Shown: in pieces, positions 28,701-51,583 of the stretch | Position numbering within the stretch: the stretch's first letter is position 1 | How the letters are laid out: the number at the start of each line of letters is the position of its first letter | Assembly: GCA_051294375.1 (NCBI GenBank) | Contig: CM119270.1 | Location: 14,146,179-14,210,178 of the forward strand | Length of the DNA stretch: 64,000 nucleotides | Direction: 5' to 3' | Source: Paraspadella gotoi | Lineage: Eukaryota > Animalia > Chaetognatha | The notes under the pieces: model-generated | The model's database searches: none | What the model was told of the DNA's origin: nothing | The model's input: only the letters and a program-made list of their open reading frames with translations | Program-made: the position numbers and the translations under genes

Positions 28701-30010
28701 GCCCGACTGTGTAATGCACAGTCACGCCAATAGGCTAAGTTTCTCCTATCGTGGCCTGGTGGCTCGTTGCGTAAATCCGTCAGCTCATGACCACTATGAA
28801 CTCGAGTACAATCCCAAACCCATACCTGCCCTCAGGGGCGGCGAGAGGGGGGGTTTTATTCGTCTCAGGTGAAGGGCCCGGGATGGCCCTGAGAAGAGAG
28901 AAAAAAATGAAAAAAGAAGAAAAAAAAAAAGAAAAGAAGAAGAAAAAAATAATGGAAAATTTTTATATTGGGTGTACCTATTTCTTAAAATTCATCTCCT
29001 TGTATTTAGATGCTGGGCGGAGTACAATATAGAATTCCGCGATCTAATACTTAATGGAGTGGTCTTTTCATACAATTGAAACATTCTTTGAAATATTTTC
29101 CACTTCATTGATAGGGAAGCCAGGTACTCTGGGAAAGCTTGCAGGAACCCACTATGTCATTATTTTGTAAGAGTGATGGAGGCCTTAAACCACCAAAGCC
29201 TGTCCAAAGTCAGGGGCAAGATAGCTTATTTATTAAATGAATGGATAATTTTTATATTGGTTGTACCAATTTCATAAAAAAGAAGAAAAAAAAAGAAGAA
29301 AAATGATAAATTAAAGGAATTGAGTGATTATGAAATGCCAAGTTGCAAGTCCTAGAGGCAGAAGTTTGAGCACTGGAGCAATTTTCATGGCAGAAAGTCG
29401 GTAATCGAAAACTAAATTATGGAGAGCGGGTGTGGGGGCGCGAAATGGTGGAGAGAGGAAGGACCAGGGCGTTTAAACTTTTTTTAGATAATCAGGCAGT
29501 GTGGGGGGTGGGGGCGGCGAGGAGGCTAGTGGGGGGCCCGCCATTTCTCTCGCCGCCCCTGCCTGCCCTAAGGGAAGACATCAATGCCCGCTACAAGTTG
29601 ACCGACGTAAAATTTTGGAGGTTAGGTATGTACGTAGTAAATTCTTTCTTTCTTAGAATTCAAAGAAGTATGCCATATAAAACCAATATCATACTGTCGG
29701 AGCAGATCCGACTTGAAAGAACACATTGTCAAAGAAAACGTTTAAAAAAGTTTTAAAAGTATTACTTCTTTCGCCTCTAAAAACTACCTTTGATATCCGA
29801 TCGCATGAACGGAACACCGAATCAATACAGCACTTATCTTTATTTGTTATTGTTATGTTTGCTAATTCTTTATTTTCCCCCTTCCCTCCCTCTTTCAAAC
29901 CCTCGTGCCTCCTAAAACTTTTCCATCTTGTCGCTTCCCACCTTCTCCTCCGAAACCCCTTCCTTCCACGCCCACCATCTCCAACGCCCCGTGCCCAACT
30001 CCTCCTTCAG

Positions 30011-32085
30011 CGAAACCCGGCGTCGGCGACGACCCCGGCGTCGTGCCATCGGAGGTCGCTACGGTACCCCCGCTTCCGGTTCGCGTCGTCGAGGAGGTCG
30101 GCGCCCAGACGCGCGGCGCCAAGGGGACGGCCGGCGCGGTTTGCGGCGTCGGCGGGCCGAGCGCAGCCGGCGCCGTCGCTGCCGTCCCCGTCGCCGGTAA
30201 AAAGAGCCCCACAAAGAAGAGCATTTTGAAGAAGGAGGCGGCGCTGCACAAGGAGGAGACGGAGAAGCTGCTCGTCGACGCGACCGAGGTCGAACCCGTC
30301 GTCCAGATCGCGGGGCCGAAGCAGCAGCAACAGCAGCATCAACAACGGCAGCAGCCGAAACATTTCCCGCCCAAACAACCGCAGCGACAACTTCCAGAGC
30401 CTATGCAACAAATTCCCGACGCGCATCGATCCGTCGATCCCCGACAACAGCATCCTTACCTCCAGCATTCCCCAGCCGCGCCCCCTCAACACCATTCCCC
30501 GGCGGCCGCCCCTTCTCAGCAGCAACAGCAGCAACAACGCTATCCCCATCATCATCACCCTCCTCTTCCCTCCGCTCCCCATCATCATCATCATCATCAC
30601 CATCACCATCCCCATCATCCTCGCGCCCCCCGTCCCCCGTCCACCGAGGCGCCCCCACCTCCCGCTCCCCCTCCCCCTCCGCACTCTTCCTCCTCCTCCT
30701 CTTCCTCCTCCAAACCTCTCGAAGAGCCGGAGTCTCCCATCTCAGCAATAAAGGAAATGAAGAAGCTCATCAAAAACAAGTTGGAGGACGGCGAGGCATC
30801 CTCGACGAGCCGCTCGGGGACCCAGCCGACGACGGGCCTCGACGACAGCGGCGGCGAATCCGGCGCCGAATCTGGCATCGGCGACGCCGCGCCGTGGGAC
30901 GCTGGCGGCGTCGTCGCCAATTCGGTCGTCGTCGAAACGCCGCCCCCGCCGCATCACTCCTGCGGCGCGGGGCACGCGCCACTCCAGCAGCATCAGCAGC
31001 AATCTCCTTACCACCACCACCATCACCACCACCAACAGCCTCTCTGCGGCCACACCCACCACCACTCCTCCGTCAACGACGATTCGGCGGTGGTGGAGGA
31101 CGGCGACGACTCAATCGTCGGGGTCGCGTCGCAATGCGTCAGTCCCGTGCGAAGCGCGCGACACGCTCAGGGGTGCCACGTCGTCGGGCCGGCGTGTCAC
31201 GCTCCCGGGTGTCAAGCGTGTCAGACTTGTCACGCCGAATGCTGCGCGGAGATGGACCGGGCGAATCAGCATCAACATCATCGCCACGCTGGTTCGTGCC
31301 ACGTTGCCACGTGCCTCGTGGGTCAAGTCGGCCACGGCGATGGATGCGCCTCCTCCGTTCAGTGCTACTCGTCGCTGCCTACGCCGAGAAGGGCGTCGAT
31401 GTTCGACGTCAACGGCGGCGGCGGCGGCGGCGGCGACAGCGGCCCAGTGACTTCGCCCAAATCCAACGACGCTTCCCTCAAATCGCCGGATTTTTCCGCC
31501 GTTCGCCGACGCAGCGGCGGCGTCGGCTGCGTCGAGGGCCGACCCGGCGGCGAATACCGCCGAAGCACCGGCGGCGCCAGCAGCGTCGGCGGTAGCGGCG
31601 GCAGCGGCTACTTCGGCAGCGGCGCCGGCGTCGACAGCAGCGACGAGGATGACGACGACGAGGATGACGACGATGCCGAGGACGACGAGGATGACGACGA
31701 CGCAGACCGCGCCGACGTTCACGACTCCTCGTTGTCGCCGCTGAGAAATATGGCGCTGCTCAAATCCATTCCATTCATAGACTCTGGCGACTCCAACGGA
31801 GATTCGCCGCCCAACTCCGCCGCCGCCGCCGCCTCCAACGCCGACGTCGCCGGCCAGGCGCCGCTCGACTCTTCCGCCGGCGCCGGGAAGCGCGTCGCCG
31901 ACTTTTTCGCCGTCGTCGTCGACGACGACGACACGAAACGATCGTGCCAACAACATAAACAACAACATCCACAACAACAACAACAACCACAAAGACAACT
32001 CCAGCAACCACTGCAACCACAATCATCGCGCAATGACAATAATGTGAATGCGTTTTATGCTACCGAGCGTTCTTGCTTATCCTAA
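30011..32085 (+). CDS. Large terminal exon (Gln/His/Pro/Gly/Asp-rich), probably the distal C-terminus of the Kv2 channel
   Basis: 726-aa GC-rich ORF 29905-32085 with the same compositional style as the Kv2 exons. Acceptor ccttcag at 30010 gives phase 1, matching the donor after 18507. The link spans an 11.5-kb intron with gaps, so it is inferred. Confidence 0.6.
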
Positions 32086-34278: not shown

Positions 34279-34717
34279 TTACAAATATTAGAAAACGTAT
34301 AATATTAGTAGTATATATACAAGGGATGTGACGGCTAAATCACTGAGACCACGCCTGCCGCGGAATCAAAAACTCATACATTCAGAGGGCGTAATCAATG
34401 TTAAAATGCTATATATTTTTAATACCAAAATGAAGGAATTATTATTAAATTTTGGCTCATAAGGTGAATGGTCGTGGGCAGTGGCGACATGCTTGCGAAA
34501 ACTAGTTAAATGAATTTTTTAAACAAATTCTCATTTTCAAGATCATCGCAACGAACAATGAAAACTTTCCACCGAATTAAAAATACTTCGCAACTTGAAT
34601 TATAGAAAACCAGGATGTCCTCCCACCACTCGAAAATACATAAGAAAAACCATTTATACCAACATTAAACGAAACCGTCCGTCGGACCTCTGGCCCTGAT
34701 CCAGCCGCTCTCCCGCC

Positions 34718-37700
34718 ATGGCGCAAAGAGCCAACAGCGACGAGGAGGCCGAGCTTCGTTTCCTGCGTCTCATCCGCTTCGTGCTGTCGGAGGGACCGCC
34801 GGCGTTGCACGCCGATTTCGAACGCTATTTGCGTCAAGAGAACAAGAGTCTGGTCGAGTATCTCGCCGAACACAAGGAGACAATCGAGGCTAAACGCAAG
34901 ACTGAAACCAACAAGTCCGGATGCCTCTTTCCGCAGCAGTACGAACTGCTCTACCCCCCTCAAGGTTCCCCGCCAGAAATAAGCGGGTTCGACATCACAC
35001 TCATGGGTTTTCTCTATCAAAACGTCCGCTGCAAGGAGAACCCAAATGAAGCACCGACCAACAATGCCTGGAACCGGTTACCCAAAGACATGTCAATGAC
35101 TAAAGGGGATGATGTTGTTAGGGTGAGAACGGTTAGAAACGAGTTGGGACACTCGGGGAACTTTGGAAAAACTCAGCATGAATATGAGACGCTGTGGAAG
35201 ACGGTGGAGGACGCGCTGCTCCGTCTCTACGGAAGCGACGCGCCCGCCGGACTGAAGAAGCGATTTAAGCGAATCAAAAGCGAAGCCTTCGACGAGAGAA
35301 GTATCAAGATGCTGAGGGATACAATAACCGAGCAAGCTGAACAGGATGCCATCAACATGGAAAGCATTCATACGCAGCTGATGGATATCAAAGATGAAAT
35401 CAGCAAAATTGCAAGTGAGCGTTGATTGTCGATTCGTCATAAAATAAAAATCACATCAAAATCACATCACAAAATGACATCCTAATTTAATTACAATTTA
35501 ATTCTATTTTATGGTGAACTAAAATCCACCAACCGTTCATCAGCGGCCATTGGTGCAGGAGGCAAGTCATTAGCCTCCCAACCCAAAAGTACGGGGTTCT
35601 AGCCCGGTGGTCGCCTAGCAGTTTAGAGGTTCTGTCACTAAAACATAACAATAATTACTGTCTCTTCAATTTCATATAAAATAAAATAGAACATCATCAC
35701 GATTTTTCCACAGAACAACCTCGACATCATGTTGTATTCAACGTCTTCAACAACATCCAAGCGAGCATGAATGAAGACAATTATGATATTACAGGTAGGG
35801 ACCGTAGATTAACACGAATGATACAATATAAACTTTATCCTTCCTTACTAAATATCTAAATCTGGTTATGATTAATTTTATCATTTATTATGAATAAATT
35901 TAAAGGGAAAAATGTTTAAAAAAGGCCCATGAGATAAAGAATTCAAATACGGTCTAATCAATACTAAATGCAAAATCAAACAATATAAAATTACTTATGA
36001 AAAAAAATTTGTACTTCATTTATATTTATGTTTTTAAAACTTAAGGAATCTTATCCGGTAAAAACTGGTAAAGATTCGTTTTGAGTCATTCGCAACTGAA
36101 CATAGATTTTGCATATTTTAGAATTTTATAAAAGTTTATATACTGATTAGAAAAAGCTTTTCAACATAATTTATTATAAAACTTGCTTTAAACCTTATGT
36201 GTAAGACGATGCCACGAGTACATAAGTAACCCGGACATCCTGATGAGTTAGATGCCCGTCATACTTCTGTGAATCAGCGGGATTTAGATGAATGCTGACG
36301 GACGAGTTTTGGGATTACGATATACTAAGAGCAAACGCCTCAAAGATTTACTTAAATTATTAAAAAGAAAACATATTTAATATTTAGGTTCGTGCAATCT
36401 GCAGTCAAGCGTCATCAAAAAGGAATCATTACAAATACATGAATCAATCAAAGAAACGATCAACAACATCTTGCAATCAGCGACAAAAACTAATGGAGTA
36501 CTAATGTTGGAGCACCTGAACAACAGATTCGATGACATTACACAGGGCGAGCATCCTCAAAAGGAAAGAGAATGTTTTAGTTATTACGCTGAGTGTTCTC
36601 TTCTCAAATTTTTAAAACAATATCCCACTCTATTTTCATTGATAAAGAAAAAGGTTCACGGAAAGGAAAGAATTCTAGTTTCCATGGCAGATAATTCGTT
36701 GACAGATCCATATGCTGAACAATTAAAACCAAAGAGAAAACAAAATATTTCAACAATTAGGAAAAAGAAACCCACCAAGTTACTACCAGCAATATCAAAT
36801 ATTCCACCATCTCTAAATTCTGCCATCACACCTATCTCTCAACCTCCTGAACCGATAACTCCGAATTCTGATGAGATAAGATACATAGACGATATTTTAA
36901 AATCTCCATTAAGTTTCAATTTAGACATCGTCTCCATTTGGAACATTCCAAACAGGCATTCAGCGTATTGCTTAAGAATAAAAACTATATCTGACAGTAA
37001 TGATTTCAATATTGATTTGTTTAAAAAAAATTTAGAATCAATTTCCAATTGTTTTAACTATGTCCCACTGTATGAAATAGGTATAGAAGGAAGAAATGAA
37101 ATTGTGTTAAAGATATTATTATCTGAATCATTTGGGGAGCCATGTTTGGTTGTTGTTGATGAAGATGACGGCAAGATCAAAATTAAGCGAAATGAATTGT
37201 ATCAATACATTCATAATCAAGCGACATGCATTGAACCTACTCATCCAGATTTTAAAGACATTTTTCAGTGGTTTTCATATAAGCCTGTGTCTATATTTGA
37301 TGATATTGATGATCCAGATTTTGGAAAAGAGGCTGATAATTTCTTTCAAAAAATTAACAACTTCAAGACTGGAAATGCCCAAGGCCATTATGCTTTAATA
37401 CTAGGACGACAAGATCCTTCAAAAAAATATTTATATGAAGTTCTTTTGCGGGTGCCATGGTTAATCATATTTGATTTTGATATTGATTCAACGAATCAAG
37501 GGGTGCAATCTGTTGCTCATGAACACCGAGTAAATGCCGTTTTTACGAATACATACAAGAAATTTCCAATCAGCGTGAAGGACAATGTGACTCTCTGGTG
37601 TCTTGCTCGAGGCATAAAAGGTGAAGAGAGTGTTGCCCCTGGAACATCTAAAGAATGGTGGTCAAGGGTTGAAGATGGGATTATGAAATACATTAAGGAT

Positions 37701-40700
37701 TTAGCAAGGTTCTGTAATTCTTACACTGTATTGCAGTTAATCGTAGCTTGGCCTGATGAGGCAGAAGAAGATAGTCCACACTTGCAAAAGTTATTACTCA
37801 GAATATGTGATAAAATTGATCCTTTTCCGGAAATTATTCTCTGCATGGAAAATAAACATCAATCTGATTCTCTAATGGACTACTTAAAAAGGTCTGAGAT
37901 TGAGAGTGTTATAAGTTATAAAATTAATTTAGCAACTATTTGTTCAGGTATAAAACATATCATTCCAAACAAAGAATTTGAAGAGACACAATATTCTCTT
38001 CCAACTAAAAAAGGAGATAATTCACCTGGTTTTGTATTTAATGAGCTGGAAAGCTTAAAAATTCATTTCAATGTTTTGTTTCTTAACAATGATTTTAAAC
38101 AATACAGTACTCAAGAAATAGTTACTCAAGAACACAATTTTCATACAGGTGGATCTATTGAATGGGGCTTAAGATATAGTTGGCGGGCGGGTGATGAATT
38201 TGATATTCAAAGAGAACTTGCTCAGAAAATGAAAAAAGACTTGCTACATTCTCTTTCCATATATTATAAAACATATAAGAAAAATGGCTTGTTAAAGAAT
38301 CAAAAGATTCTTTTAAATCATATTCCGGGATCTGGAGGAAGTACACTTGCAAAACGACTTTTATGGGACATGCATGAATTGATCCCATGTGCTGAACTAA
38401 AAACTCCGCTTTCGTCTCTCGATTCACAAGATGCAGGATATCTAAAACAAAATATCAAACTTCTTCAAAGTAGAACCCAATTACCTATTTTAATACTGAT
38501 GGATGGTGCAAGCGATCTCATGATGAGTCGCTTAAGCAAAGAGTTGGAAATGGTTGGGGTGACTGCAATTTTTATCTGTGTTCATCAAAAGCTATCAATT
38601 CGTGATTCAAAGGGATCTAGGTGTGAAAATAAATATTTGCTGAGTGAAACTCTTTCATCCTCTGAATCTGAGTCGCTATATCATAAATTGAGGCATCTTT
38701 GTACTGACAAAATCTGTCGCTCCAATCTTATGGCTTTACATGAAGAGGTAAAAAAAGGCAACCAACATCACTTGATAGAATATGGATTGACTGCCTTTAC
38801 AACTGAATATAGAGGCCTACGACCCTATGTCGTTAGTTACTTGGAACCCTTAGATCTTGAGGCTTCACAATTGAAACTGTTAATGTTTGTTTCATTATCA
38901 CTGTATTACGGTCATACTGGAATTCCAATTCAATGGTTTTGTCCTCTGCTTTATTTACCCAAAAACCAAAAATTGAATTTAGAAGATATGAATTTAGTAA
39001 AAAGCTTTTTAAAGTTTGAATCAGATTCAAAAAACATCATTTTAAGACATACGTTAATAGCAAAAGAAATATTAGAAGTTTCCTTAAATCCAGAAAGTCG
39101 ATTAAAAGATATGGAATCAACTCCATTTTTATCTGAAAACGCACGACAAATGCTTTTTCCAATTTTAAAAGATTTCATTGAATTTTTAAAACGACAAAAC
39201 ACATCTAAAACAAAAGATGTGGTTTTTAAAATATTCATTCGACGAGAAGTTGATGGTAGATTTGCCAGAGTCATTCACGATATCCCAAGCATTGAAAGGC
39301 AAGAAGAGACACTTTCGCTTGTTGTTGAAAATTTTAAAGATGCTGAAACGTTACTACATTTGGGTAGATTCTATACTTACCAGAAGAAAGACAGAGAAAA
39401 GGCACAAGAATGTTTTGAAGAAGCGTTGCAAATTTGCAACCAGCGCGCTGTTTCTGACAATGAAGAAGAAACTGGTTTACAAGACACGTTTATGAGAGTG
39501 TACCACTCTTATGGCTATCATTACCTTCAGCAATTAGAAGAAATAACTGGCGGACCTTCTGGAACCAAACATTCTTCCACTAATAGAGATTCCAATGATG
39601 AAGATTTGCAGTTTAGTTTTCAATTCGCAAAAGAAGCTAGAGAATGTTATCAGAAAAGTCGCGGCTACACATCACCATGGAATATGAGTACAGGTTCTTT
39701 TCTTTTTGAAGTGAGAGTTATGCTGAATATATGCGATTTTGTTCATCGAAATTGGAGAAAAACAGAAAAACACACAAATGTCATCAAGGTAGTCTCTAAA
39801 GGAAACTTTTCAAATAACTCGGTAAAGGAATTTGTTATAGAATGTATTGGTGAAATAGATTGTCTCTTAAATGCTTGCTCTGAGTATGTTGATGGCAAGG
39901 ACTCAGAGTATGAATCCTTGTGCGATTGGAATCAGACTCTTTTTAAAAGTAGCTACATGGATCTTCAACAACTTATGCAAGGTTCAGGTGGTTCAAATAA
40001 CTCTGAAAGAAGAAACACAGTAGCTGCTATCAAATTGCATCACTCAAATTCAAGAGAACATCTGGCATCTTTACGAGCAGTAGATAAAATTAGACATATC
40101 GAAAGAATAGTTGATCTTCTTGGGCAAAACATCGACTATGTGCATCGGTATAGTAGAGAATTTGATTGGAAATACGAAAAAGACCTAAATGAATGGTTGA
40201 TAGCTATTAGGCACCCCTATTACAGCAAAACAATATCATTCAATGATGTTTTGGCAAAAGTAAAGTTGTGGTATGATAACAAAAAGTCATTGAATTCTAC
40301 TTTTTATTATTTAATTTTGCTAACCATTCAAGGTCTTGAAGGATACACACCTTCTTATCTCGAGGCAGAAATTAAGCACAAAGAACTTTTAGAGTTCAGA
40401 AAAAAAGGTTACATTCGGCATCTTCGATATCCCCGGGAATGGTTGGGCAACGGGAAGGATTTCAACTGCCTGGTTTCTGGAGCCCCGCCAAACGTGCAAG
40501 ATAATTCTCATCTTTTGCTCTTCAGACAACAAAGCGAGAAACTGAAAACAATGACTGGAAGCATTTGCGAGCCCAACGATGACGACCTGTCAGGATACAT
40601 CAGCGTCGATTTCCCAAAACAAGACGCTTTGGGACTCCGCAAAATAAGAGCCTTTTACCATCCACAAATAAATCAGCTCAACGACAAGATAAACGCCAAC

Positions 40701-40814
40701 AAGAAGGTTACGTTCAAATTGTGCTTCACGTTCAATCACGGTTATCACGCAAGAGACGTGGAGCTCATCAAGAAGAAGATAAATGAAGATCATGAATGCG
40801 TATATGATGATTAG
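34718..40814 (+). CDS. SAMD9-like STAND NTPase with N-terminal DZIP3-like HEPN domain (HEPN - coiled coil - LOTUS-like - degenerate AlbA-like - SIR2-like - P-loop - TPR - OB fold), ~1734 aa
   Basis: Exons 34718-35414, 35714-35794 and 36388-40814, all phase-1 GT-AG junctions, 5205 nt open. HEPN: FDITLMGFLYQNV...W..P...DDVVRVRTVRNELGH. SAMD9-family motifs: VPWLIIFDFDIDSTNQGV, FHTGGSIEW..DIQRE, LNHIPGSGGSTLAKRLLWDMH, PILILMDG, HLGRFY (TPR), and C-terminal KVTFKLCFTFNHGYHARDVE (cf. SAMD9 KVSFYLGFSIGGPLAYDI). Confidence 0.85.
35543..35615 (+). mobile_element. tRNA-derived (Gly-CCC-like) SINE head or tRNA pseudogene in intron 1 of the SAMD9-like gene
   Basis: Acceptor stem GCGGCCA/TGGTCGC, A-box TGGTGCAGGAGG, loop CTCCCAA, B-box-like GGTTCTAGCC. 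The anticodon stem pairs poorly. Confidence 0.55.
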
Positions 40815-40944
40815 AAAATAAGTAAACAAGTGTTAAGTCTACAGTTCTCGAACAATCAATAATTTTTCAAACAGTTCATTAATATTAAGTTTCCTTATTT
40901 TTTTTCAAATGAATTTTTTAATAATTATTATATAGTTTATCCAT

Positions 40945-41573
40945 TAAGGCGCAGTGAAAGTTGCAGATCAAAATTCGAATAGTTGATCATGAACAGTCTT
41001 GAACTAAAGAACATTGATATATAAAAAAATTATTTTTAAAATTTCTCAATTTTCGCTTACGCCCATATTTAATCATAGTACTCACCATAGAAAATGTCAA
41101 AATTTTTCTTAGTTTTGAAAGCACATTCGAATTCCGCATAGAAAATTTATAAAAGAAAATGTAAGTCTTAATCAAAAATTATTTCATTAAGTTAGCCAAA
41201 ATTCGAAAAACTATATTTTTTATACTAAAACTATATTTTTTATACTAAAATTTAATTATAGGTTAATAATAATAGTTTTTAGCATTTTGACCTACTTAAT
41301 GAAATAATTTTCTAAAAAGAGATATATTTCCTTTTATCAACTTTTCGTGAGAAATTCGAATCTGCTTTAAAAAAAAAGAAAAATTTTTTTATAATTTTGA
41401 ACTTTTCTATGGTGAGTACTATGTATAAATATGGGCGTATGCGAAAATTGAAAAATAAAAATTAATTATTTTTCATTTAAAAATCTTCACAGGTACAAGC
41501 CTGTTCGTGATCTACTATTCGAATTTTGAATTCAACTTGATTTTAATATTTTTGCTACGCTTTATTGTCCTTA
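40945..41573. mobile_element. Foldback/MITE-like element with ~235-bp imperfect terminal inverted repeats
   Basis: 40969-41205 (caaaattcgaatagttgatcatgaacag...cgcccatattt...catagtactcaccatagaaaa...ttatttcattaagt) is the reverse complement of ~41285-41528. Ends are TAAGG...CCTTA, and a 20-bp direct duplication lies at ~41207-41250. Confidence 0.75.
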
Positions 41574-42014: not shown

Positions 42015-45000
42015 ATGAATCAGCTTAGGTTTAGAAATAAAATAAAATTTTAAAACAAAAGGATCTACAGGCATGTACCATTAAATGTACGTACTAAGTT
42101 AAAAGCATTAAACGCATGGACTCATCGAACGTTAAAGACATGAAAGTCACTGAGTGTTTTCATGATAACCGGTTTACCTGTACCTCTTGTTTCTACGTAA
42201 AAAATAATCGATGAAGAAACTTGTAAAGAACTTGAAGCTTCTTCGTTTCAAAGACAAAGGCTCTCGTGAAAGAAGAACGTTCGTCTCAAATCGATTCTCA
42301 GTTCATTTCCGAATCGAAAATTGAAGACTTTGCTTTTTTTGTCCTTCGATTTAATTTTTATTTAGCAACTTATATTCATTTATTTATGATTTAGCAGGGA
42401 CGCCATCCTTTCTCAATTCACCTCCAGGGTCCCTGTGAGTCATGACTCGTGACTCGTCCGCCGCGGTGACGATCGTGAGTGCGAAAAGTTTCGCACGGTG
42501 ACGTTAAACTGTTAAGTTAACATTTGAGACATTTAATGCCACGAATTTTGAAATCATTAAATAAATATCTAAAAAATGTAATATAAAGTAACAAAAAAAA
42601 CAAAAAAAAAAAACAGATTCGCTCGACGCGCCGATCTTTCCATCGGGAGAAGATGCCGGGGACTAAAAGGCAATGGTCTCTCGGGCAGGTAAGCACGAAG
42701 GAACAAATTTAGGATGGAAAATCAATTAAGAGAATTACTGATTTTTTTATCATCGTTAGTTGTGTGACTCTACTATTTCAAATATCTGTTCTTCAATTCT
42801 AACCGTTCCCTATTCCCTGCGTTTCACTTACCAAGGGCGCACCGGGGACGGTCGAAGAGCCTCCGCCTTATGGACACTCTCAGGCGCAGCCGCAGGCGCA
42901 CGGTGGGTCGTTGCAATTTCCCTCTGTGCTGCCGCCCTACCTGGACTCAACACTTATTTCGTACGAGGCTCTCAAAGTAAGTTCGTTCGACTCTGTGTTT
43001 AAGGATTGAGTTATTAATTTCCGTATCTTAGAGATACACTTTTTGATATTTTGTCCGTTTGTCTGTTTCAGTGTTTAAAGCTCTTTGACATCCAATATAT
43101 AGCGAGTACATCATTACTATTAAATATTCCTTCTTACTCCTCAGGATTCCACCAACTTGTACCACGGCCGAGAAATAGGAGAGGCGGACGTTGAAATGCT
43201 TGAACAACAACAGGTTAACTTTACAGCGTTCATTAATCTATTAGTAAACAAATTATCGCGAAATTAAATGCCGAATGATATTTCGTACGAATAATTAATA
43301 ATCGACGGTTTAATGGAACAAATCTTTGCCATCAAGGGTGAAGAGACTAAGAGAGAGTCGTTGCAACGCAAAGGATTTTTCGGTGGACGAATTACGACGA
43401 AAGGCGGACGAGGGGTTTACATGCTCAAGGTCGCTCAATTATTCATTTAAAGTAGAGTTTATGTTAACCATATTATTTTCATCGATATCCGTTTCTTTCG
43501 ACGGCGACAGATAACATTTCTGACCCTGGTTCCCATCATCGCTTTGATCGGAGTCAACATTTCTTCCTTAGTGTCAAACATAACGGAGACAATTCACGCC
43601 GTCGAGTTGAAAAAGGTTCGCCAAAAATAAATAAAATTATTCAATAGAGTCTTTGTGGGAATTTACAAGTGCATTTATTTTTTTGCCGATATTAAATAAC
43701 CTGCGCATGCGATGTCCTTACAACAATATTAATTTATTTTTAAAAAAAAGTAGTATAATTTATAGTATAATATACTATAAATGCATTTTTTTGATCCAGG
43801 AAATCGAGTTTTCCCTCGAAGTGGCGAAGGTCATTCAATACTTGGGGAAAGAAAGAGGAATAGCCGCCGTCGTGATGTCCAATTTAAACAGGTAAGTCAG
43901 ACGTTGGGTAAGTTTTATCACTTTTTTTTAGTCAATTTACCGAAATGGCTTTAAATCCAAGGGTGCAATGTTAACCGTGTGGGCCAGGTTCCCGCTCTAT
44001 TGGCAAATTGTAACGGGGCTGGTTGATACAGAGAGTGCGAAATTCAAGAAACTAATCACAGGGGCTCTGACCATTTTCAATGTGTCAAGAAATACTAATT
44101 AATTCAAAAGGAAATCGGCCGAGGAGTTGAAGCCACTCCTGAAGCAGCAGGTCATCCGGTATGAGGAGACGGACCGGGCGATCAACAACATGTCAGGCTG
44201 GCCGGCAGGAGTCTCCAAGGAACTGGAATTTGCCGGACACGAGTTTCGATCCAGGGTTTGACACTAATTTTAAAATTATTTTAAATGTTTATACTTTATT
44301 ATTTTACTAATTAAATATGAATTTTAAAATGATTTATAATAGGTTAATAAGTTCCCTGCTAAAGTTTTTAATTTTTCCTAATTTGTAAATTTTTCAACTT
44401 CATTACGTTTTTTGTTTTGCATAATGCACATTATGCTTCTTCTAAATTTTTTAAAACAAAAAAAACAAATTTAATGCACATACTGCAGAACATATTTAAA
44501 CGTCTCAATGTGTTTGTCTCCATTTTCTCTCAGGCGACGTTGCAACACTTTTTAAACGTTCATCGCGCCACAAAACGCAACACGACCGCGATCGAAGAAA
44601 TTAACTTTTATTCCCGGATCATCGTTGTTTTTCTCGATTGGCTTTATCACAACATCAGGGATTCAAAGGTACGAAACGGAAATGATTTCATTCATTAACA
44701 TCACTCATTCATTCATTTACTCATTCATTCACTTATTCATTCATAGAGTTCAAAATTACTTTAATATACATAGTTTTGCGTTTTCTTTCCTCTCCTTTCC
44801 TCTCCTTTCCAGTCCCACAATTTCACAAGCGAATTCCTTGATTCTTCTTCTTCTTTTGCCCCTCCCTCCAGAACGAGCAAAGCTGGCCTAGTCTGGTGGC
44901 CTACGAAATATTCACCTCGTCCCTGGAGAATATGGGAATGGAGAGATCACTCGGCCGGGTGTTCTACACCAACGGTCACTTTGACACTGACAACGATTAT

Positions 45001-46045
45001 CTCTCCTACATCAAGCAGTACCACGTGGGAAAGAACAACCTGGCTTTGGCAGGTCATTTCACGTCATGGGGCCAGTATTTTTCTTTTATTAAATTATTAA
45101 ACTAAAACATTAAAATTTCTTTTTGCGTGAAGGGATTTTGATGGAGTAAGAGATGTGCATAGAAAAGCTTCCTTTGAACGGACAAACGAGTCAGGAGACA
45201 GACAAACTGTGACAATGACAGGAAAAGAAAACCTTAAATTTAAAAATCGTTGATTTCTGATTTAATCTGAGACCATAGTCATCATTAAAGATTTCTATCA
45301 TTTAAAGAAAAGGATTCTTAAGGTCGTCCTTTGTGATCGGCGGAGCGCCGGTCCACTTGGGTCCGATGATCACGACGGGTTTGCCGTGGAAAGGTCGCCA
45401 CACGAGCATCTGAGCTACGTTGGCGTGCGGCGGAACCAGCACGTCTCGCGGGATCGATTTTGGAGGATCTTCTATGATCTGGGGAGGTGGTTTTCAAAAT
45501 TCGAATCCTCGGAGATTAGACGTCGTTTTGCTCGCTTTTGTGCTTGTAATGAAGCTCGTTTGGTCCAAAGTACACAGGTTTTGAGTTTTAGTTTCAGTTA
45601 CCTCTGGCTGCAGCTGTTTCACTGGCCCGATGACTTTGCAGCGCTGGCCGCACGATCTCTTCCTGTCAACCTTTATATCGATCACTACTCGCCATTTGAC
45701 GGTTTTAAGCGGGAACATCTGGTTTTTAGAAATCGTAGTAGTTCAAAACTGAATTTACTTAGCAAAAATGGTAACTGAATAATATTGACGTACTTCCCGA
45801 GTTTCCTCATTTCTCGCTACGACCCAGCAGAAAAAGCTGAAAAAAAGGGATTTAGTTAATAACGACTCGTGACAAAATTGTGAACATTTTTTGTAAACCT
45901 TTGATCCCGGTGAATCTCAGTCAACGAACATTGGCCAATGATGTATCGACTGCCGTCGGGTGGAACCCACGTAACCTTTATCGAGACGGTGGAAAGATGT
46001 GTGTGTGTGTGTGTTGTGTGTGTGTGTTGTGTGATGAGAGAGAGA

Positions 46046-46139
<94 letters not shown>

Positions 46140-49100
46140 CCTTGCCTGTGGAGAAAAAGAGTCGCTCATTTTAATGTTGAAAAACGTGTCATCATTCGTT
46201 GGTCCCCATAGCATCTGCGTCTCGTGACGTCCGCCGTACCTATTTTCACTACTTAATATTTTAATTTGGTTTCTTTATCTTCTTTTGTCCCTAGTTTTCT
46301 TTTCTTTCCTTTCCTTTCCTTTCTTTTCTTTTCGTTTTCCTTTCCTGTCATTTCCTTTCCTTTCCTTTTTCCTTTTCCTTTTCCTTTCTTCCTTTTTTCC
46401 TTATTCCTTTCCTTTCCTTTCCTTTCCTTTCCTTTCCTTTCCTTTCCTTTTCCTTTCCTTTTTCCTTTCCTTTCCTTTCCTTTCCTTTCCTTTTCCTTTC
46501 CTTCTTTACTTTACTTTTACTTTACTTTACTTTACTTTACTTTACTTTACTTTACTTTCCCCTTTCCTTTCCCTTTTCCTTTTCCTTTTCCTTTTCCTTT
46601 TCTTTTTCCTTTCCTTTACCTTCCTTGCCTGGCCCCGACTTCTACTTCCCTTCCTTTCTTTTTAAAAATTACTTTTCCTTTCCTTCCCAACCTTTACCTA
46701 GTTTACACTCCTCATTTCCCGTTTTGCTTCACCTTAATTTTTTTTCCTTTTCCTTTTTTCCCCCTATTTATTCCACTCTATCGCTTTCATTTCCCTTTCT
46801 TTTCCATTTCCCTTCACCACGGCAAATGCTCCCCGTCCGAGTCCGATAAGATCTTCTGCCCGCGATTGAGTTCCGGAAATTCCCAGCTCGACATTCCGTT
46901 GTCGCCATAGACGTTGATGAACTTCATTGTCGCGCAGCCTTGGATCCAACCGATGGTCCAGAACTCGCCCAAACCCAGTCGCGGAACTTCCACCTTTATC
47001 AACGTTCGTGCGGAAAAGATTTAATGTGAAATAAAAAGGCGTTAATAATAATATTAAATAATATTAAATGTAATGGGAGAGTAAAACGGTTGATCATTTT
47101 ACCAGCGCTTTTGCTTTGAAGGACGGCGAAGTATACTTGACGAAAATGTTGGACGTTTCGTCCACGCTAACGATTTTTTCTTGTATATAAGCTTGGACCG
47201 ATACCTTGCGTGCCAGATTTGTAGAGGTACAGGTACACTGGTACAGCGTAGCAAATGATAAGTGTAAACTTACCTTAATTTTGCTTGGGTCCAAAGTTGG
47301 GCCTCTTTTGTTTTGATTGATGTTCAGTCGAGGAGATGGAATCTCTCGTTCATCGTTTTCGTCGTCGTCGTCGTTGTCGTCGTCGTCGTCTTCATCGTCG
47401 CAACTGTCGTCGTCTTTGTTATTGATGACCCTGAGTCAATATCGGAGAGATAACCTGTATTTTAGACACTTTCATTCTATGACTTGCTGTTTACATTTTA
47501 ATTCGCCCCGACAGAGCTGTCGTTGAGCCGTTTGGTCATAAGGTAAGCTAAGTAAAAAAAATAATAAATAAATTAAAAAAAAAAATTTATGGATAAGAAA
47601 GCACGAAATCTACGGGAGAAAATTACAATAATATCCAAATTGATTTTTTGACTTGAAGAGTTATCAATTAGAAAAAAAACAAACCGTACAGTAGATCAAA
47701 TAAAAAAAAAATAAATAATTTTAGATAGATCATTATAAAAAATTGTTTATACTAACAATAATATATCCATTTTAATAATCAATAAGTCAATCAACGAACA
47801 AATCTATAAGTGTACAAATCAATCAATCATTATAATTCATTAATAATAATCAAAATCGATCAATCAGGTAAGTTTGACGGGTTCGTGAGAAAACGATACA
47901 ACAAACTGGCGGAACAACGTAAAGAAACTTTCGATCACCTGGCGGAGATGCGCCTGCACCTGTTGAACTCGCGGAATCGAACGAGATCGCCCTCGATTCA
48001 GCTGGCCAATTGGTGGTACGACAACGTCACCATCATGATAGGTAAGGAAAACATTTATTAATTTATTAAACGAATACAAATATTAAAACCTAACCTTTTA
48101 TATATATTATCACTTGTTCGTCCAAAATCACATGACTTCATATCTCGTCAGACATCATGAGTCAACTTCACAACGACTTTGCTCGACTCATCCTCGGCCG
48201 AGTGCAGGAAGAACTCGACAACATCTTCCAAGGTGAGGTCGAAATTACTAAGTTATAAAATGTAAAGAAAAAAAAAGCGGCATACTTTTCCAGTTCACGT
48301 GATATTTTTTTCTATTTTCCTATTTAGCTTTGACGGTGAACATCATCCTCTTCGTCTCGATGATCATCTTTTGTCCCATCACCGTCACATTCGTTCACGT
48401 CCTCACTAGAGATCTTCACAACTACGCGCTCACCCTCGTCGAGCAGACGCAGGTCAATAAAGAATAAAGAAACTAAAGATTAAATAAGTAGTAAGTAAAT
48501 AGCAATTAAATAAATTAAATTAATTAAATAAATCAAATGAATAACTTTAGAAACAATCTATAAGTCACTCAATTACCCATTCTATAAATCATTCAATCAA
48601 TCTATCCGACGTGACCACGCCTTCTTTTCAGGCATTAAATACAGAAAAAAAGAAAACGGATGGTCTTTTGTTCGAAATGCTTCCGCGCGCCGTCGCTCAG
48701 TCGCTGAAGGAAGGGAAACGGGTCGAGCCCGCCGCCTACGAGAGCGCCTCCATCTTGTTCGCGGGTACAAAGTGACGCGGCGTCTATTATGATACGGTGA
48801 TACAATTCACCAAACCCAAACCCTCTCAACTTTCCCAGATATCGTGGACTTTACCCGGCTGAGTTCGGAGTGCAGCCCGATGCAAGTCGTCGACATGCTC
48901 AACAACATCTACATGTGCTTCGACCTGCGGTTGCAGCAATACGACGTCTACAAAGTCGAGACCATCGGCGATGGCTACATGGTCGTTTCCGGTGGGCGAA
49001 GCGACTCCAAATTTTATTTGGAAATTCATAAGATTGCCTTTTTGTTTCGTTTCGTTTTGTTTCTTTTAGGCGTTCCCAAACCCAATGGAGATCGTCACGC

Positions 49101-51583
49101 CGGGGAAATTGCGACGTGAGTTTTTTCCCCATACATTTAAAAAACTATAATTAATTATCATTAATTTTTAAAGATAATTTATTCTTCTTCTCTTGACCCC
49201 GCTAAAACATAACCTTTCTTTTTTCCATTGCTTCTTTTTTTTTCAGAACTGCGCTCGACCTTCGGGAACACATTCAACGCGTTAAAGTTCCCCATCTCCC
49301 GACGAAGAGTCTACAAATAAGAGTCGGAATCAACACCGGTCTATATTTAGAATATTTATTAATGATATATAATAATCACAATCAACTTCAATCTCGATAC
49401 AACAAACAGGCCCGGTTGTCGCTGGCGTCGTCGGAATCAAAATGCCTCGATATTGTTTGTTCGGTGACGCAGTCAACACGGCGGCGAGGATGGAGAGTCA
49501 CAGTCTGCCCAATCGGTCGGTGATAAATGTTATTATAAATGGCATTTATAACATTGATATTTTCTCTTACACTCATCTCAAAATTATAATTAAACGATCC
49601 CAGAATTTTTATCTTGACGAAAACACTGCTTGATAAAGGTTATTTAACCTTTCTGCTTCAAACTAACCTGTAAAATCGTTATTTAACCTTTTTTGGTTCA
49701 AACTAACCTGTAAAATCGTTATTTAACCTTTTTTGCTTCAAACTAACCTGTAAAATCGTTATTTAACCTTTTTTGCTTCAAACTGACCTGTAAAATCGTT
49801 ATTTAACTTTTTTGCTTCAAACTAACCCGTAAAATCGTTGCAGCATTCAGATTTCCGAGGCAACTTTTCACGCGCTGGAAAAACTGGGCGGATACATCAC
49901 CGAGCTGCGCGGGGAAATCGAGATCAAGGGTAGGGGCGACATGATCACCTACTGGCTGAAGGTAAGGTTTATACATTGCGTTCACGGTTAGCTGTTGCTT
50001 TATTTCGATTAATAATTATCGTACATAAATTAACTGTCACTCTCAGGGAAAGACTTTTCACGTGAGCAGCTTTAATAATCCTCACTCGGCTCCGATAGAG
50101 GAAGAGACTCCCCTCATGTTTCCGCAACTCAAACCGCAAAGTTAGTTGACGACATTTTAAAACATTTTAAAACAAAATAAATTTAAATATAACGAGATAC
50201 TTTGGAATATACCACCTTTTGCGGAACAGTAGGTACTTTCAGTCGTCCTACTGTGAAGTAATATAGACTTTCTTAAATATTAAAGAACAATGCTAAGACT
50301 ACTCGAAGAATAAAGTGTGGAAGTAGATTGCCGCGACTTGTTCACCGTTCCGTTGAACACAAGGTCCGGAACTTCGGATCGGGCAGTAGTTCGTCACTAC
50401 AGGTGGGTTAGACGCCCCGTCCCGCTTTTACTTGTGTAAAACAGCAAGGCGTGAACCCAAGTCCTATGACTTGGGAGGAACTCGCGCAACCTCCGTCGCC
50501 ATATGAAATATTAGCCTTACAAACGTAACATTTTCAATGAGTGAAAAAATCCAATCGTCACTGTAAGATTCTTTCTCTTTCTTTCTCAGAGAACAAGAAC
50601 ATCAAACCCAGAGTCAACCAAGAGGATCGTCCGCTTATGTTTCCCCAACTCATGCAGTCGGCCAGTGAGTATCGTCTTTTAGATATATTTTAATATTTCC
50701 CTTGTGGCGGTATATTCACACCGCCTCACGTCCACCATCCGTCAGCCAAATCCATTGGCTCAGAGGGGGAACACACCATCCCAGGCGTAGTGTTCCATCC
50801 ACAGTCCTAATGACTTCCCTCTGCGTTGGCAAAGCGAGACCGTCCTAGGGTAACCGCGCCAGTGACTGGAGGCGTCACTGAGGGTCGGAAGCCCCCAAAG
50901 CCAACAGTGAGATGCCCCATCCCAATGGGCATCACAGGCAACCCGGCTGTTGCCATACCCTCTCCCTTTTATAATACGAATATTTTCAGTAAATACGTAG
51001 ATTTAAAATTTATTTATTGATTGATTTATTTTTTAAAATTTAGTTTAATAGAGTAGAACATTGAACAAGTACTTTTTCAATTTCCATAAATAAAAATATC
51101 TTCACGACCAAAAAGACCTAAACGAACGAACAAACGGACGAACAAACGAACAAACAAACAAACAAACAAACAAATTCTTTGTTTTTTTTTTCCGCATTAT
51201 TCGTTTCCTTACGTTGCGCACCATCCTCCTTCAAGCCGACTTGTATCACAACGAAGGAGCCCCGGGTCAGATTCCGCCCCAGCCGCATCACCCATCGCAT
51301 CCGGTGCCCCCGACCCAGGCTCACCCCGGCTACTTCCCTCCTCCCGCCGCGGTTCATCAAGGTGGGAGGTCGTTCGGTGAGTAATCGGTAAATGACTTGG
51401 GGCTCGTTGGCAGTTGGTTAATATGTCACTGGTCGCTGGTCAGCCATTCGCGGTTTTTTAAAAAAAAATTACGTTTCACGTGACAGTTATCGCGTTTGCT
51501 TCCCGATTACAGAAGGCGTGTCGGTGATAACCAAATCTGGAGCGGTGCAAGGAATCCGTAACGCTATCGCTTCCTTGACCTGA
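42015..51583 (+). CDS. NIT-domain (nitrate/nitrite-sensing) membrane guanylyl cyclase, ~825 aa, 24 exons
   Basis: Exons 42015-42028, 42398-42434, 42617-42688, 42836-42976, 43145-43213, 43337-43429, 43511-43615 (TM1), 43800-43891 (IQYLGKERG), 44111-44255 ([12 protein letters not shown]), 44534-44668, 44872-45052 ([10 protein letters not shown]), 47868-48041 (WWYDNVT), 48152-48232, 48328-48452 (TM2), 48632-48764 ([18 protein letters not shown]), 48839-48991 ([14 protein letters not shown]), 49070-49115, 49247-49338, 49410-49515 ([19 protein letters not shown]), 49844-49961, 50047-50140, 50590-50664, 51236-51361, 51513-51583. Total 2478 nt in frame. GTP-specifying Glu and Cys are present. The outermost exons are less certain. 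Confidence 0.88.
45302..47430 (-). CDS. FAM78: FAM78 (FAM78A/B) homologue nested antisense in the NIT-GC intron 45053-47867; start exon unresolved
   Basis: Minus-strand exons 47430-47274, 47204-47103, 46993-46818, 46239-46146, 45975-45899, 45836-45794, 45718-45602 and 45478-45302 join in frame. Translation: [116 protein letters not shown]. This is colinear with FAM78A motifs (GWIQAC, GMSSWELP, SDSDG, RDQSF, NANDAQVLMWRP). Confidence 0.9.
49639..49843 (+). repeat. Intronic minisatellite, ~40-bp unit x5
   Basis: Unit gttatttaaccttttt(g)cttcaaactaacctgtaaaatc is repeated five times and runs into the acceptor at 49843. Confidence 0.9.
50290..50502 (-). mobile_element. Possible tRNA-derived SINE in a cyclase intron
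   Basis: Minus strand starts ggcgacggaggttgcgcgagttcCTCCCAAgtcataggacttGGGTTCAcgcc, with the same CTCCCAA loop and a B-box-like motif, followed by a GC-rich body in AT-rich intron. Confidence 0.35.

Follow-up and report, generated by a model that had tools for sequence, protein, structure and literature searches.

A gene encoding a protein of the SAMD9 family with an HEPN domain as its head was found at positions 34718 to 40814 of a stretch of DNA from the chaetognath Paraspadella gotoi (assembly GCA_051294375.1, contig CM119270.1, positions 14,146,179 to 14,210,178 of the forward strand). The whole stretch of 64,000 nucleotides is called the window here, and coordinates are counted from its first letter. 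The gene is real, expressed, intact and spliced, and its HEPN head stands before an AlbA_2/Schlafen-like domain that is likely to be inactive. We hypothesise, with a probability of roughly 0.5, that the protein acts as a switch of cell-intrinsic defence, with the HEPN domain as its predicted RNase. The features of the gene are as follows.

34718..35414, plus strand: coding exon 1, with ATG in the context gccATGg and an in-frame stop upstream
34850..35296, plus strand: DZIP3/hRUL138-like HEPN domain, predicted RNase (Pfam PF18738, E 2.3e-26)
35135..35152, plus strand: HEPN R-N-x3-H motif, RNELGH, intact
35415..35713, plus strand: intron 1, GT..AG, with a very high-copy repeat inside at about 35510-35669
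35714..35794, plus strand: exon 2, 81 nt, encoding a linker
35795..36387, plus strand: intron 2, GT..AG, absent from a 4692-nt transcript contig
36388..40814, plus strand: coding exon 3, 4427 nt, encoding the LOTUS domain through to the OB fold, and the stop
36414..36692, plus strand: LOTUS/OST-HTH winged helix, predicted to bind RNA or a helicase (model with predicted local distance difference test score, pLDDT, of about 90; TDRD5, 3s93)
36837..37292, plus strand: AlbA_2/Schlafen-like domain, retained, without Ex4(E/D)xK, likely inactive (7ksp; Foldseek)
37377..37964, plus strand: SIR2-like domain, approximate limits from a profile alignment to human SAMD9, with PWLIIFDFD at 37455-37481
38112..39269, plus strand: STAND/NOD module, approximate limits from the human SAMD9 profile alignment and residue positions
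38319..38345, plus strand: Walker A without lysine and with an upstream His, HIPGSGGST
38490..38507, plus strand: Walker B Asp
38586..38588, plus strand: Gln at the position of the Sensor-1 Arg
39048..39050, plus strand: His of the winged-helix domain (WHD), kept
39270..40380, plus strand: TPR-like helical repeats, approximate limits (weak Pfam TPR matches; profile matches to TPR proteins)
40542..40778, plus strand: C-terminal OB fold, cold-shock-like, approximate limits (profile match to the human SAMD9 C-terminus)

A first-pass annotation, made from the letters of the window alone, had proposed that two open reading frames (ORFs) are spliced through an 81-nt exon into one frame of about 1734 residues. 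This is what is observed: the joined exons 34718-35414, 35714-35794 and 36388-40814 give 1734 codons with a single stop at the end. Four in-frame alternatives exist among the nearby splice placements that were tried, and the transcript contigs match the junctions originally predicted, 35414/35714 and 35794/36388. The sole source of splice evidence is the public run X1, whose status as RNA is a tool's guess; it contains 84% of the words of the window, and runs X2 and X3 contain almost none. The 4692-nt X1 contig skips 593 nt with GT..AG ends, which is the second junction; it spans 36386-40971 and connects to exon 2, with the middle of intron 2 uncovered. At the first junction, two contigs of 121 nt depart from the window at 35414, and their next 15 letters are the first 15 nt of exon 2. 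No contig enters intron 1 past this point. An 824-nt contig corresponds to 34515-35338, and transcript cover extends past both ends of the gene, from 34515 or earlier to 40971 or beyond. The chain of contigs from exon 1 to exon 3 is continuous via end overlaps of 30 nt, the span from HEPN to body being held in no single contig. Depths are similar (12 for the exon 1 contig, 20 for that of exon 3), and of the coding differences that the main contigs show against the window, the two listed are silent. The gene is present in one copy within the window. Exact look-ups of ORFs from the window in the sequence collection found none of them present.

The two large exons differ in composition. The GC content at third codon positions (GC3) is 0.63 in exon 1 and 0.30 in exon 3, and the observed/expected ratio of CpG is 1.14 and about 0.6 respectively, the neighbouring genes having 1.2-1.8. 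A recent fusion or transfer was considered as the cause and not accepted: gene-body methylation, which is common in invertebrates, yields a like pattern.

It is worth adding two observations on the transcripts. A second X1 contig over 35309-35414, of depth 4.75, has six differences in 106 nt and the identical splice junction; four of its five listed changes alter residues of the linker that follows the HEPN domain, and it may be a divergent allele, a paralogue or an error. The repeat at 35510-35669 in intron 1 is itself transcribed, with a depth of about 33,000 in X1, and is like a short interspersed element (SINE) in appearance. It has no second copy within the window, and there was no tRNA or Rfam call for it.

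HEPN RNase sites have been defined as Rx4-6H with a polar residue following the R (PMC3710099). The head of this protein has both, and its match to PF18738 (residues 45-193) reaches 92.7 bits against a gathering cut-off of 27, confirming the DZIP3-like HEPN domain and the intact RNELGH of the first-pass annotation. In animals this HEPN family is found fused to TPR, CARD, NACHT, DEATH and LRR domains (PMC3710099). No SAM domain was matched by Pfam in either ORF. Judged from the domain order, the HEPN domain occupies the slot of the CARD, Death, RHIM or SAM heads, ahead of the ancestral nuclease domain, and it is most likely the working RNase of the protein.

The body, on the evidence of its sequence, belongs to the SAMD9 family. 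Although a word-indexed search with single ORFs found no homologue and a profile search found four, a full HMMER scan with the body found 481 relatives at E<=1e-3, the best being 32% identical across the whole body. Among the best 150 of these 481, which were the ones examined, the top relatives are 29-33% identical over the same length. The named relatives come from oyster, scallops, freshwater mussel, zebra mussel, abalone, snails, chiton, Lingula, brittle star, tunicate and lamprey, and many are labelled SAMD9-like. Lingula XP_013415988.1, a member of the family analysed in Mekhedov 2017 (PMC5445408), matches the body directly with E 6e-70. Profiles that include the query match human SAMD9 with E 1.9e-31 and 9.3e-58, in agreement with the SAMD9-like body that had been proposed. 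The match begins where the tRNase domain ends and takes in the TPRs, the OB fold gives a second match, and the homology spans the core, SIR2-like domain to OB fold. Three quick trees place the query, on a long branch, in a clade with support 98-100 in which every named member is a mollusc. Some of the mollusc SAMD9-like proteins (P0007, P0016, P0022 and P0027) have RHIM motifs near the cut-off at the N-terminus, as does L005:1277-1516; a RHIM head was not found in the available SAMD9 literature texts.

The motifs PWLIIFDFD and HIPGSGGST are where they were said to be, and the latter has the Walker A form of the family, in which Gly replaces Lys (GGT/S) and a His lies upstream. With no lysine in Walker A and no Pfam NACHT match, the protein does not have the pattern of a NACHT-type NOD-like receptor (NLR). 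The C-terminal TPR array and OB fold of the family are present as weak but ordered profile matches. Weak Pfam TPR matches fall at residues 985-1020 of the exon-3 frame, and the stretch 1119-1242 of the profile matches the C-terminus of human SAMD9 with E 0.003 and the CspA-like 3i2z with E 0.29; cold-shock domain (CSD) matches in relatives support the OB assignment. Pfam gave nothing above its cut-off on the exon-3 body, PADLOC gave no match, and a single-sequence search of the PDB gave no useful one. A single-sequence model of the body was set aside (pLDDT 36), and a Pfam match to Diphtheria_R (E 0.1) and a sub-threshold twister match were treated as chance.

Two domains were overlooked in the first-pass annotation, which had listed HEPN, SIR2-like, STAND, TPR and OB, all of which were found. 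The full order is HEPN, linker, LOTUS, AlbA_2-like, SIR2-like, STAND, TPR and OB. A structure model of 36390-37337, built from 30 sequences, has a pLDDT of 75. Its first domain superimposes on TDRD5 3s93 with Z 10.1 and a root-mean-square deviation (rmsd) of 1.8 over 79 aligned residues, and by structure comparison its fold is nearest to TDRD5, MARF1, Tejas and TDRD7, with the caution that, for winged helices, matches at Z 7-10 are in part generic. Pfam gives a weak WH_Egal match in this region. A LOTUS/OST-HTH domain also precedes AlbA_2 in many invertebrate SAMD9-family relatives (P0004-P0164); no mention of LOTUS was found in the portions of the SAMD9 literature searched.

The next domain resembles the tRNase domain of human SAMD9, 7ksp (Z 8.6, rmsd 4.5, 148 aligned), and SLFN12 (Z 8.6). 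AlbA_2/Schlafen entries take the top Foldseek ranks, at weak E values of 4e-3 to 0.09, and residues 160-299 of the exon-3 frame correspond to the region that Pfam identifies as SLFN_AlbA_2 in relatives. An AlbA_2 domain ahead of the SIR2-like domain is a feature of the SAMD9 family. The proposal that the SAMD9 chassis carries a different RNase is supported as to the presence of the HEPN head, a predicted RNase, but the AlbA_2/Schlafen domain has been retained in degenerate form and not replaced. The motif Ex4(E/D)xK is catalytic in Schlafen RNases (PMC13056530). It is present in 39 of 46 bacterial-side relatives, in none of 35 on the animal side, and not in the query. Of 163 stored proteins, the 95 in which an AlbA-like region is present were the basis of these counts; eight cluster mates were dropped, bacterial-side rows are those with letters at the motif, and the sides were assigned from tree and names. 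The second acid and the Lys of the motif are missing from the query, its G-V-x-D/E strand is altered and shortened, and the acidic cluster of SAMD9-type nucleases (Ex4(E/D)xK plus further acids) is absent. The domain is likely to be inactive. That all 35 animal-side relatives counted lack the motif casts doubt on the view of invertebrate SAMD9s as tRNases.

Human SAMD9 is closed on ATP, with H737 in place of the Walker A lysine, and it is activated by way of asymmetric dimers, in which the nuclease heads would be brought together (PMC13600222). The Sensor-1 mutation R837A abolishes both antiviral activity and the asymmetric dimers (PMC13600222). H737 and R837 were tied to profile columns through the numbering of the human SAMD9 alignment. 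The Walker A His is present in the query and in 135 of 135 relatives, and the Gly that replaces Lys is likewise kept in the query, as are the first acid of Walker B and the WHD His.

On the basis of these observations, we infer an antiviral function and a dimer-driven activation, which might proceed as follows. At rest, the core of SIR2-like, NOD, TPR and OB domains would be closed on ATP, as in human SAMD9. A signal of infection would open it, and copies would gather via SIR2/SIR2 and OB/SIR2 contacts. The tethered HEPN heads could then pair and form one active site from two R-N-x3-H motifs, in the way that Las1 builds a single site from two HEPN motifs (10.1101/760058). The LOTUS and degenerate AlbA_2 domains might keep RNA beside this site, and cleavage of tRNA, rRNA or viral RNA would halt translation.

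Several results weigh against this proposal. At Sensor-1 the alignment shows a Gln in the query, with Lys as the next residue, against an Arg in 131 of the 135 relatives. This departs from the SAMD9-type activation switch, weakens the earlier claim of a STAND switch, and is the main result against a canonical one. The long branch of the query (1.6-1.95) is as compatible with relaxed selection as with an arms race. The AlbA_2-like domain retains the invariant Asp of DIVS-x-WN, before the W-N-x-P motif, which from its spacing is possibly the equivalent of D45 in Avs9, where E14, D19, D45 and E65 are catalytic (10.1101/2025.05.19.654893). A Glu falls in the column of the first acid in one alignment out of two, and the human SAMD9 acids E184, E196, E218 and D241 lie outside the Ex4Ex-K spacing, which makes the motif test an indirect one. 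RNase activity of any DZIP3-type HEPN was not found in the literature searched, nor was a solved structural relative of the domain by single-sequence search of the PDB. Finally, Pfam detected no HEPN in any of the 115 protein relatives scanned, which comprise 101 of the 150 matches listed and 14 others, so the exact fusion may not be conserved; upstream exons may be missing from records of this kind.

The pairing of HEPN and SAMD9 was looked for more widely. The exon-1 protein matches none of the 150 listed relatives; exon-1 HEPN relatives were found neither in metagenome contigs nor by tblastn in 94 loci with SAMD9-like cores. From these loci 45 head stretches were scanned. Two of the loci, L041 and L045, which are 56% identical to each other and have SAMD9-like cores at E 1e-51 and 4e-50, match HEPN_DZIP3 weakly (E about 1e-3, under the cut-off) and have the motif K-N-x4-H; the head stands directly before the SIR2-like domain, and AlbA_2 is absent. 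A third, L089 of the Bacteroidota, has a DUF4145 head just above the cut-off on a SAMD9-like core. These HEPN-type heads directly on cores that lack AlbA_2 indicate that the pairing can occupy the effector slot. In Atlas, a search with the body as query gave an 84-member cluster (1444 aa, score 0.93) with HEPN_DZIP3 in 45%; when a chiton relative was the query, the HEPN-bearing cluster was not among the matches listed. Taken together, two contigs with weak matches, a genome of the Bacteroidota and a cluster in Atlas point to a recurrent pairing. In a comparison of profiles, which were thin, the heads of L041/L045 matched the query HEPN weakly (probability 1.3, E 0.04). L041, L045 and L089 stand apart from the query in trees. 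An independent origin of the HEPN heads was not accepted, as a single clade of query, L041 and L045 is not rejected by the approximately unbiased (AU) test (p-AU 0.158); P0046, cut at the wrong motif and distorting the drawn root of one tree, was omitted from the tree used for it.

Further heads were seen in the same loci. L041:17-6079 and L045:141-5405 represent a SAMD9-like lineage on a long branch, probably animal, that has no AlbA_2 and whose HEPN-type domain is DZIP3-like. L039 has a motif RNDLSH and no Pfam match. The low-GC bacterial SAMD9-like loci L042, L046, L047, L054-L059, L061 and L093 have 150-180 helical residues at the start that match no Pfam family and end in an N-x-x-K-H-like motif, and are possibly divergent HEPN domains.

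Other explanations of the gene have to be weighed against a defence switch with an HEPN effector. The loss of the Sensor-1 Arg, whose human equivalent loses function when mutated (PMC13600222), would be accounted for if the switch had been disabled or rewired, leaving the core as a scaffold or decoy and the HEPN domain constitutive, controlled by a partner or merely RNA-binding; the long branch and the degenerate AlbA_2 fit this too. However, every other residue of the nucleotide site is kept, the Lys after the Gln could substitute, the frame of 4.4 kb is open and transcribed, and the Arg is also missing from 4 of 135 relatives at the Sensor-1 column, which makes this explanation unlikely. If instead the AlbA_2 domain were still an active tRNase with a variant site, the HEPN domain would be a second nuclease, or a dimerisation head replacing SAM. 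Its position is that of the SAM, CARD and Death heads, and the AlbA_2 fold is kept with its invariant Asp, Asn and Trp, but the missing second acid and Lys and the altered, shortened strand make such a nuclease rather improbable.

The resemblance of the LOTUS domain to TDRD5, MARF1, Tejas and TDRD7 raises the question whether the protein's role is not antiviral defence but germ-line or anti-transposon RNA surveillance, in which LOTUS would dock it on germ granules or on a helicase of the Vasa type. LOTUS proteins are listed in the literature as germ-granule factors. We consider this role rather improbable, as the winged helix is shared with many CARD-, Death- or RHIM-headed relatives, which points to immune signalling, and the structural matches are in part generic. 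That the fusion itself is an artefact, from separate genes, rare read-through or misassembly, is highly improbable. It could draw on the single run, the want of one contig from HEPN to body and the gap in GC3, but transcript contigs carry both junctions, the intron ends are canonical, the frame is kept, intron 1 is not entered, and the depths are similar.

A wider proposal, which we put forward tentatively and hold to be possible rather than probable, is that the invertebrate SAMD9s of this clade mostly lost the Schlafen-type tRNase and were re-armed with CARD, Death or RHIM heads that serve signalling and, on more than one occasion, with DZIP3-type HEPN heads. The present gene would then be a nuclease replacement caught midway, with translation shut off by HEPN and the dead nuclease serving as an RNA clamp, mirroring the effector swapping of bacterial Avs proteins. 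If this is true, the effectors of animal SAMD9s would widen from Schlafen-type tRNases and death-fold adaptors to include HEPN RNases. The gene would offer a natural test of the SAMD9 core as a general proximity switch, and a compact system for asking whether DZIP3-type HEPN domains, expanded in immune genes of oysters and corals, cut RNA; this would be a first demonstration, as far as the literature searched goes.

The rest of the window is animal DNA with small introns. Matches to Pfam BTB_2 and Ion_trans at 9.8-12.9 kb mark a potassium channel, which we take to be of the Shab/Kv2 type. A GC-rich, low-complexity ORF of 739 codons without a Pfam match, at 29866-32085, is possibly the C-terminal exon of this upstream channel. 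Downstream, a multi-exon guanylate cyclase gene occupies 42600-50100 (HNOBA and cyclase matches, the cyclase at 48.5-49.6 kb), with short minus-strand coding-like stretches inside an intron at about 46800-47400. A DMRTA gene lies on the minus strand at about 54.4-55.2 kb.

The closest characterised systems are human SAMD9 and SAMD9L (PDB 9zjr, 9zjw, 7ksp; PMC10246899, PMC13600222), which have, in the same order, AlbA_2-like and SIR2-like domains, a STAND module without the Lys and with the His upstream, the WHD His, TPR and OB. The query differs in having HEPN and LOTUS instead of SAM, a degenerate AlbA_2 motif and the Sensor-1 Gln. Within the invertebrate family described by Mekhedov, Makarova and Koonin (2017, PMC5445408), its nearest named relatives are those of bivalves, gastropods and a chiton, at 26-32% identity over the whole body. 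These share the LOTUS-like domain and the degenerate AlbA_2, but carry CARD, Death, RHIM or no head where the query carries HEPN. The heads reported in that paper are SAM, DEATH-fold, kinase and glycosyltransferase; HEPN, DZIP3 and LOTUS do not occur in its text and supplements as searched, with Figure 1 and the fourth supplement being places where further heads might be shown. No description of an animal SAMD9 with an HEPN head was found in the literature searched, which lacked most subscription papers.

The architecture, suggested at first to be undescribed, has relatives on two sides. In the HEPN_DZIP3-NACHT NLR-like proteins of oysters and cnidarians (PMC9646362, PMC8260672, PMC3710099), the same Rx4H HEPN family stands at the N-terminus of an animal STAND protein, and these are common: more than 50 HEPN-headed NACHT proteins in pearl oyster (PMC9646362) and 17-83 per species in anthozoans (PMC8260672). 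Their core is NACHT with LRR, TPR or WD40, in contrast to the SIR2-like, Lys-less NOD and OB core of SAMD9. In bacteria, HEPN with STAND, TPR and an S1 or cold-shock OB fold was already catalogued in 2013 (PMC3710099). Such proteins, with Avs5, Avs6 and Avs9 (PMC12680541, in whose available text the word HEPN does not occur), similarly place HEPN or another swappable effector on a STAND-TPR-OB body. L089 is one such bacterial protein. They have other HEPN families, no LOTUS and no AlbA_2 remnant, and are separate from the query in trees. Both the building blocks and effector swapping as a principle are known, while the HEPN head on a SAMD9 core, of which the example so far is one gene, is new for animals as far as the literature searched goes.

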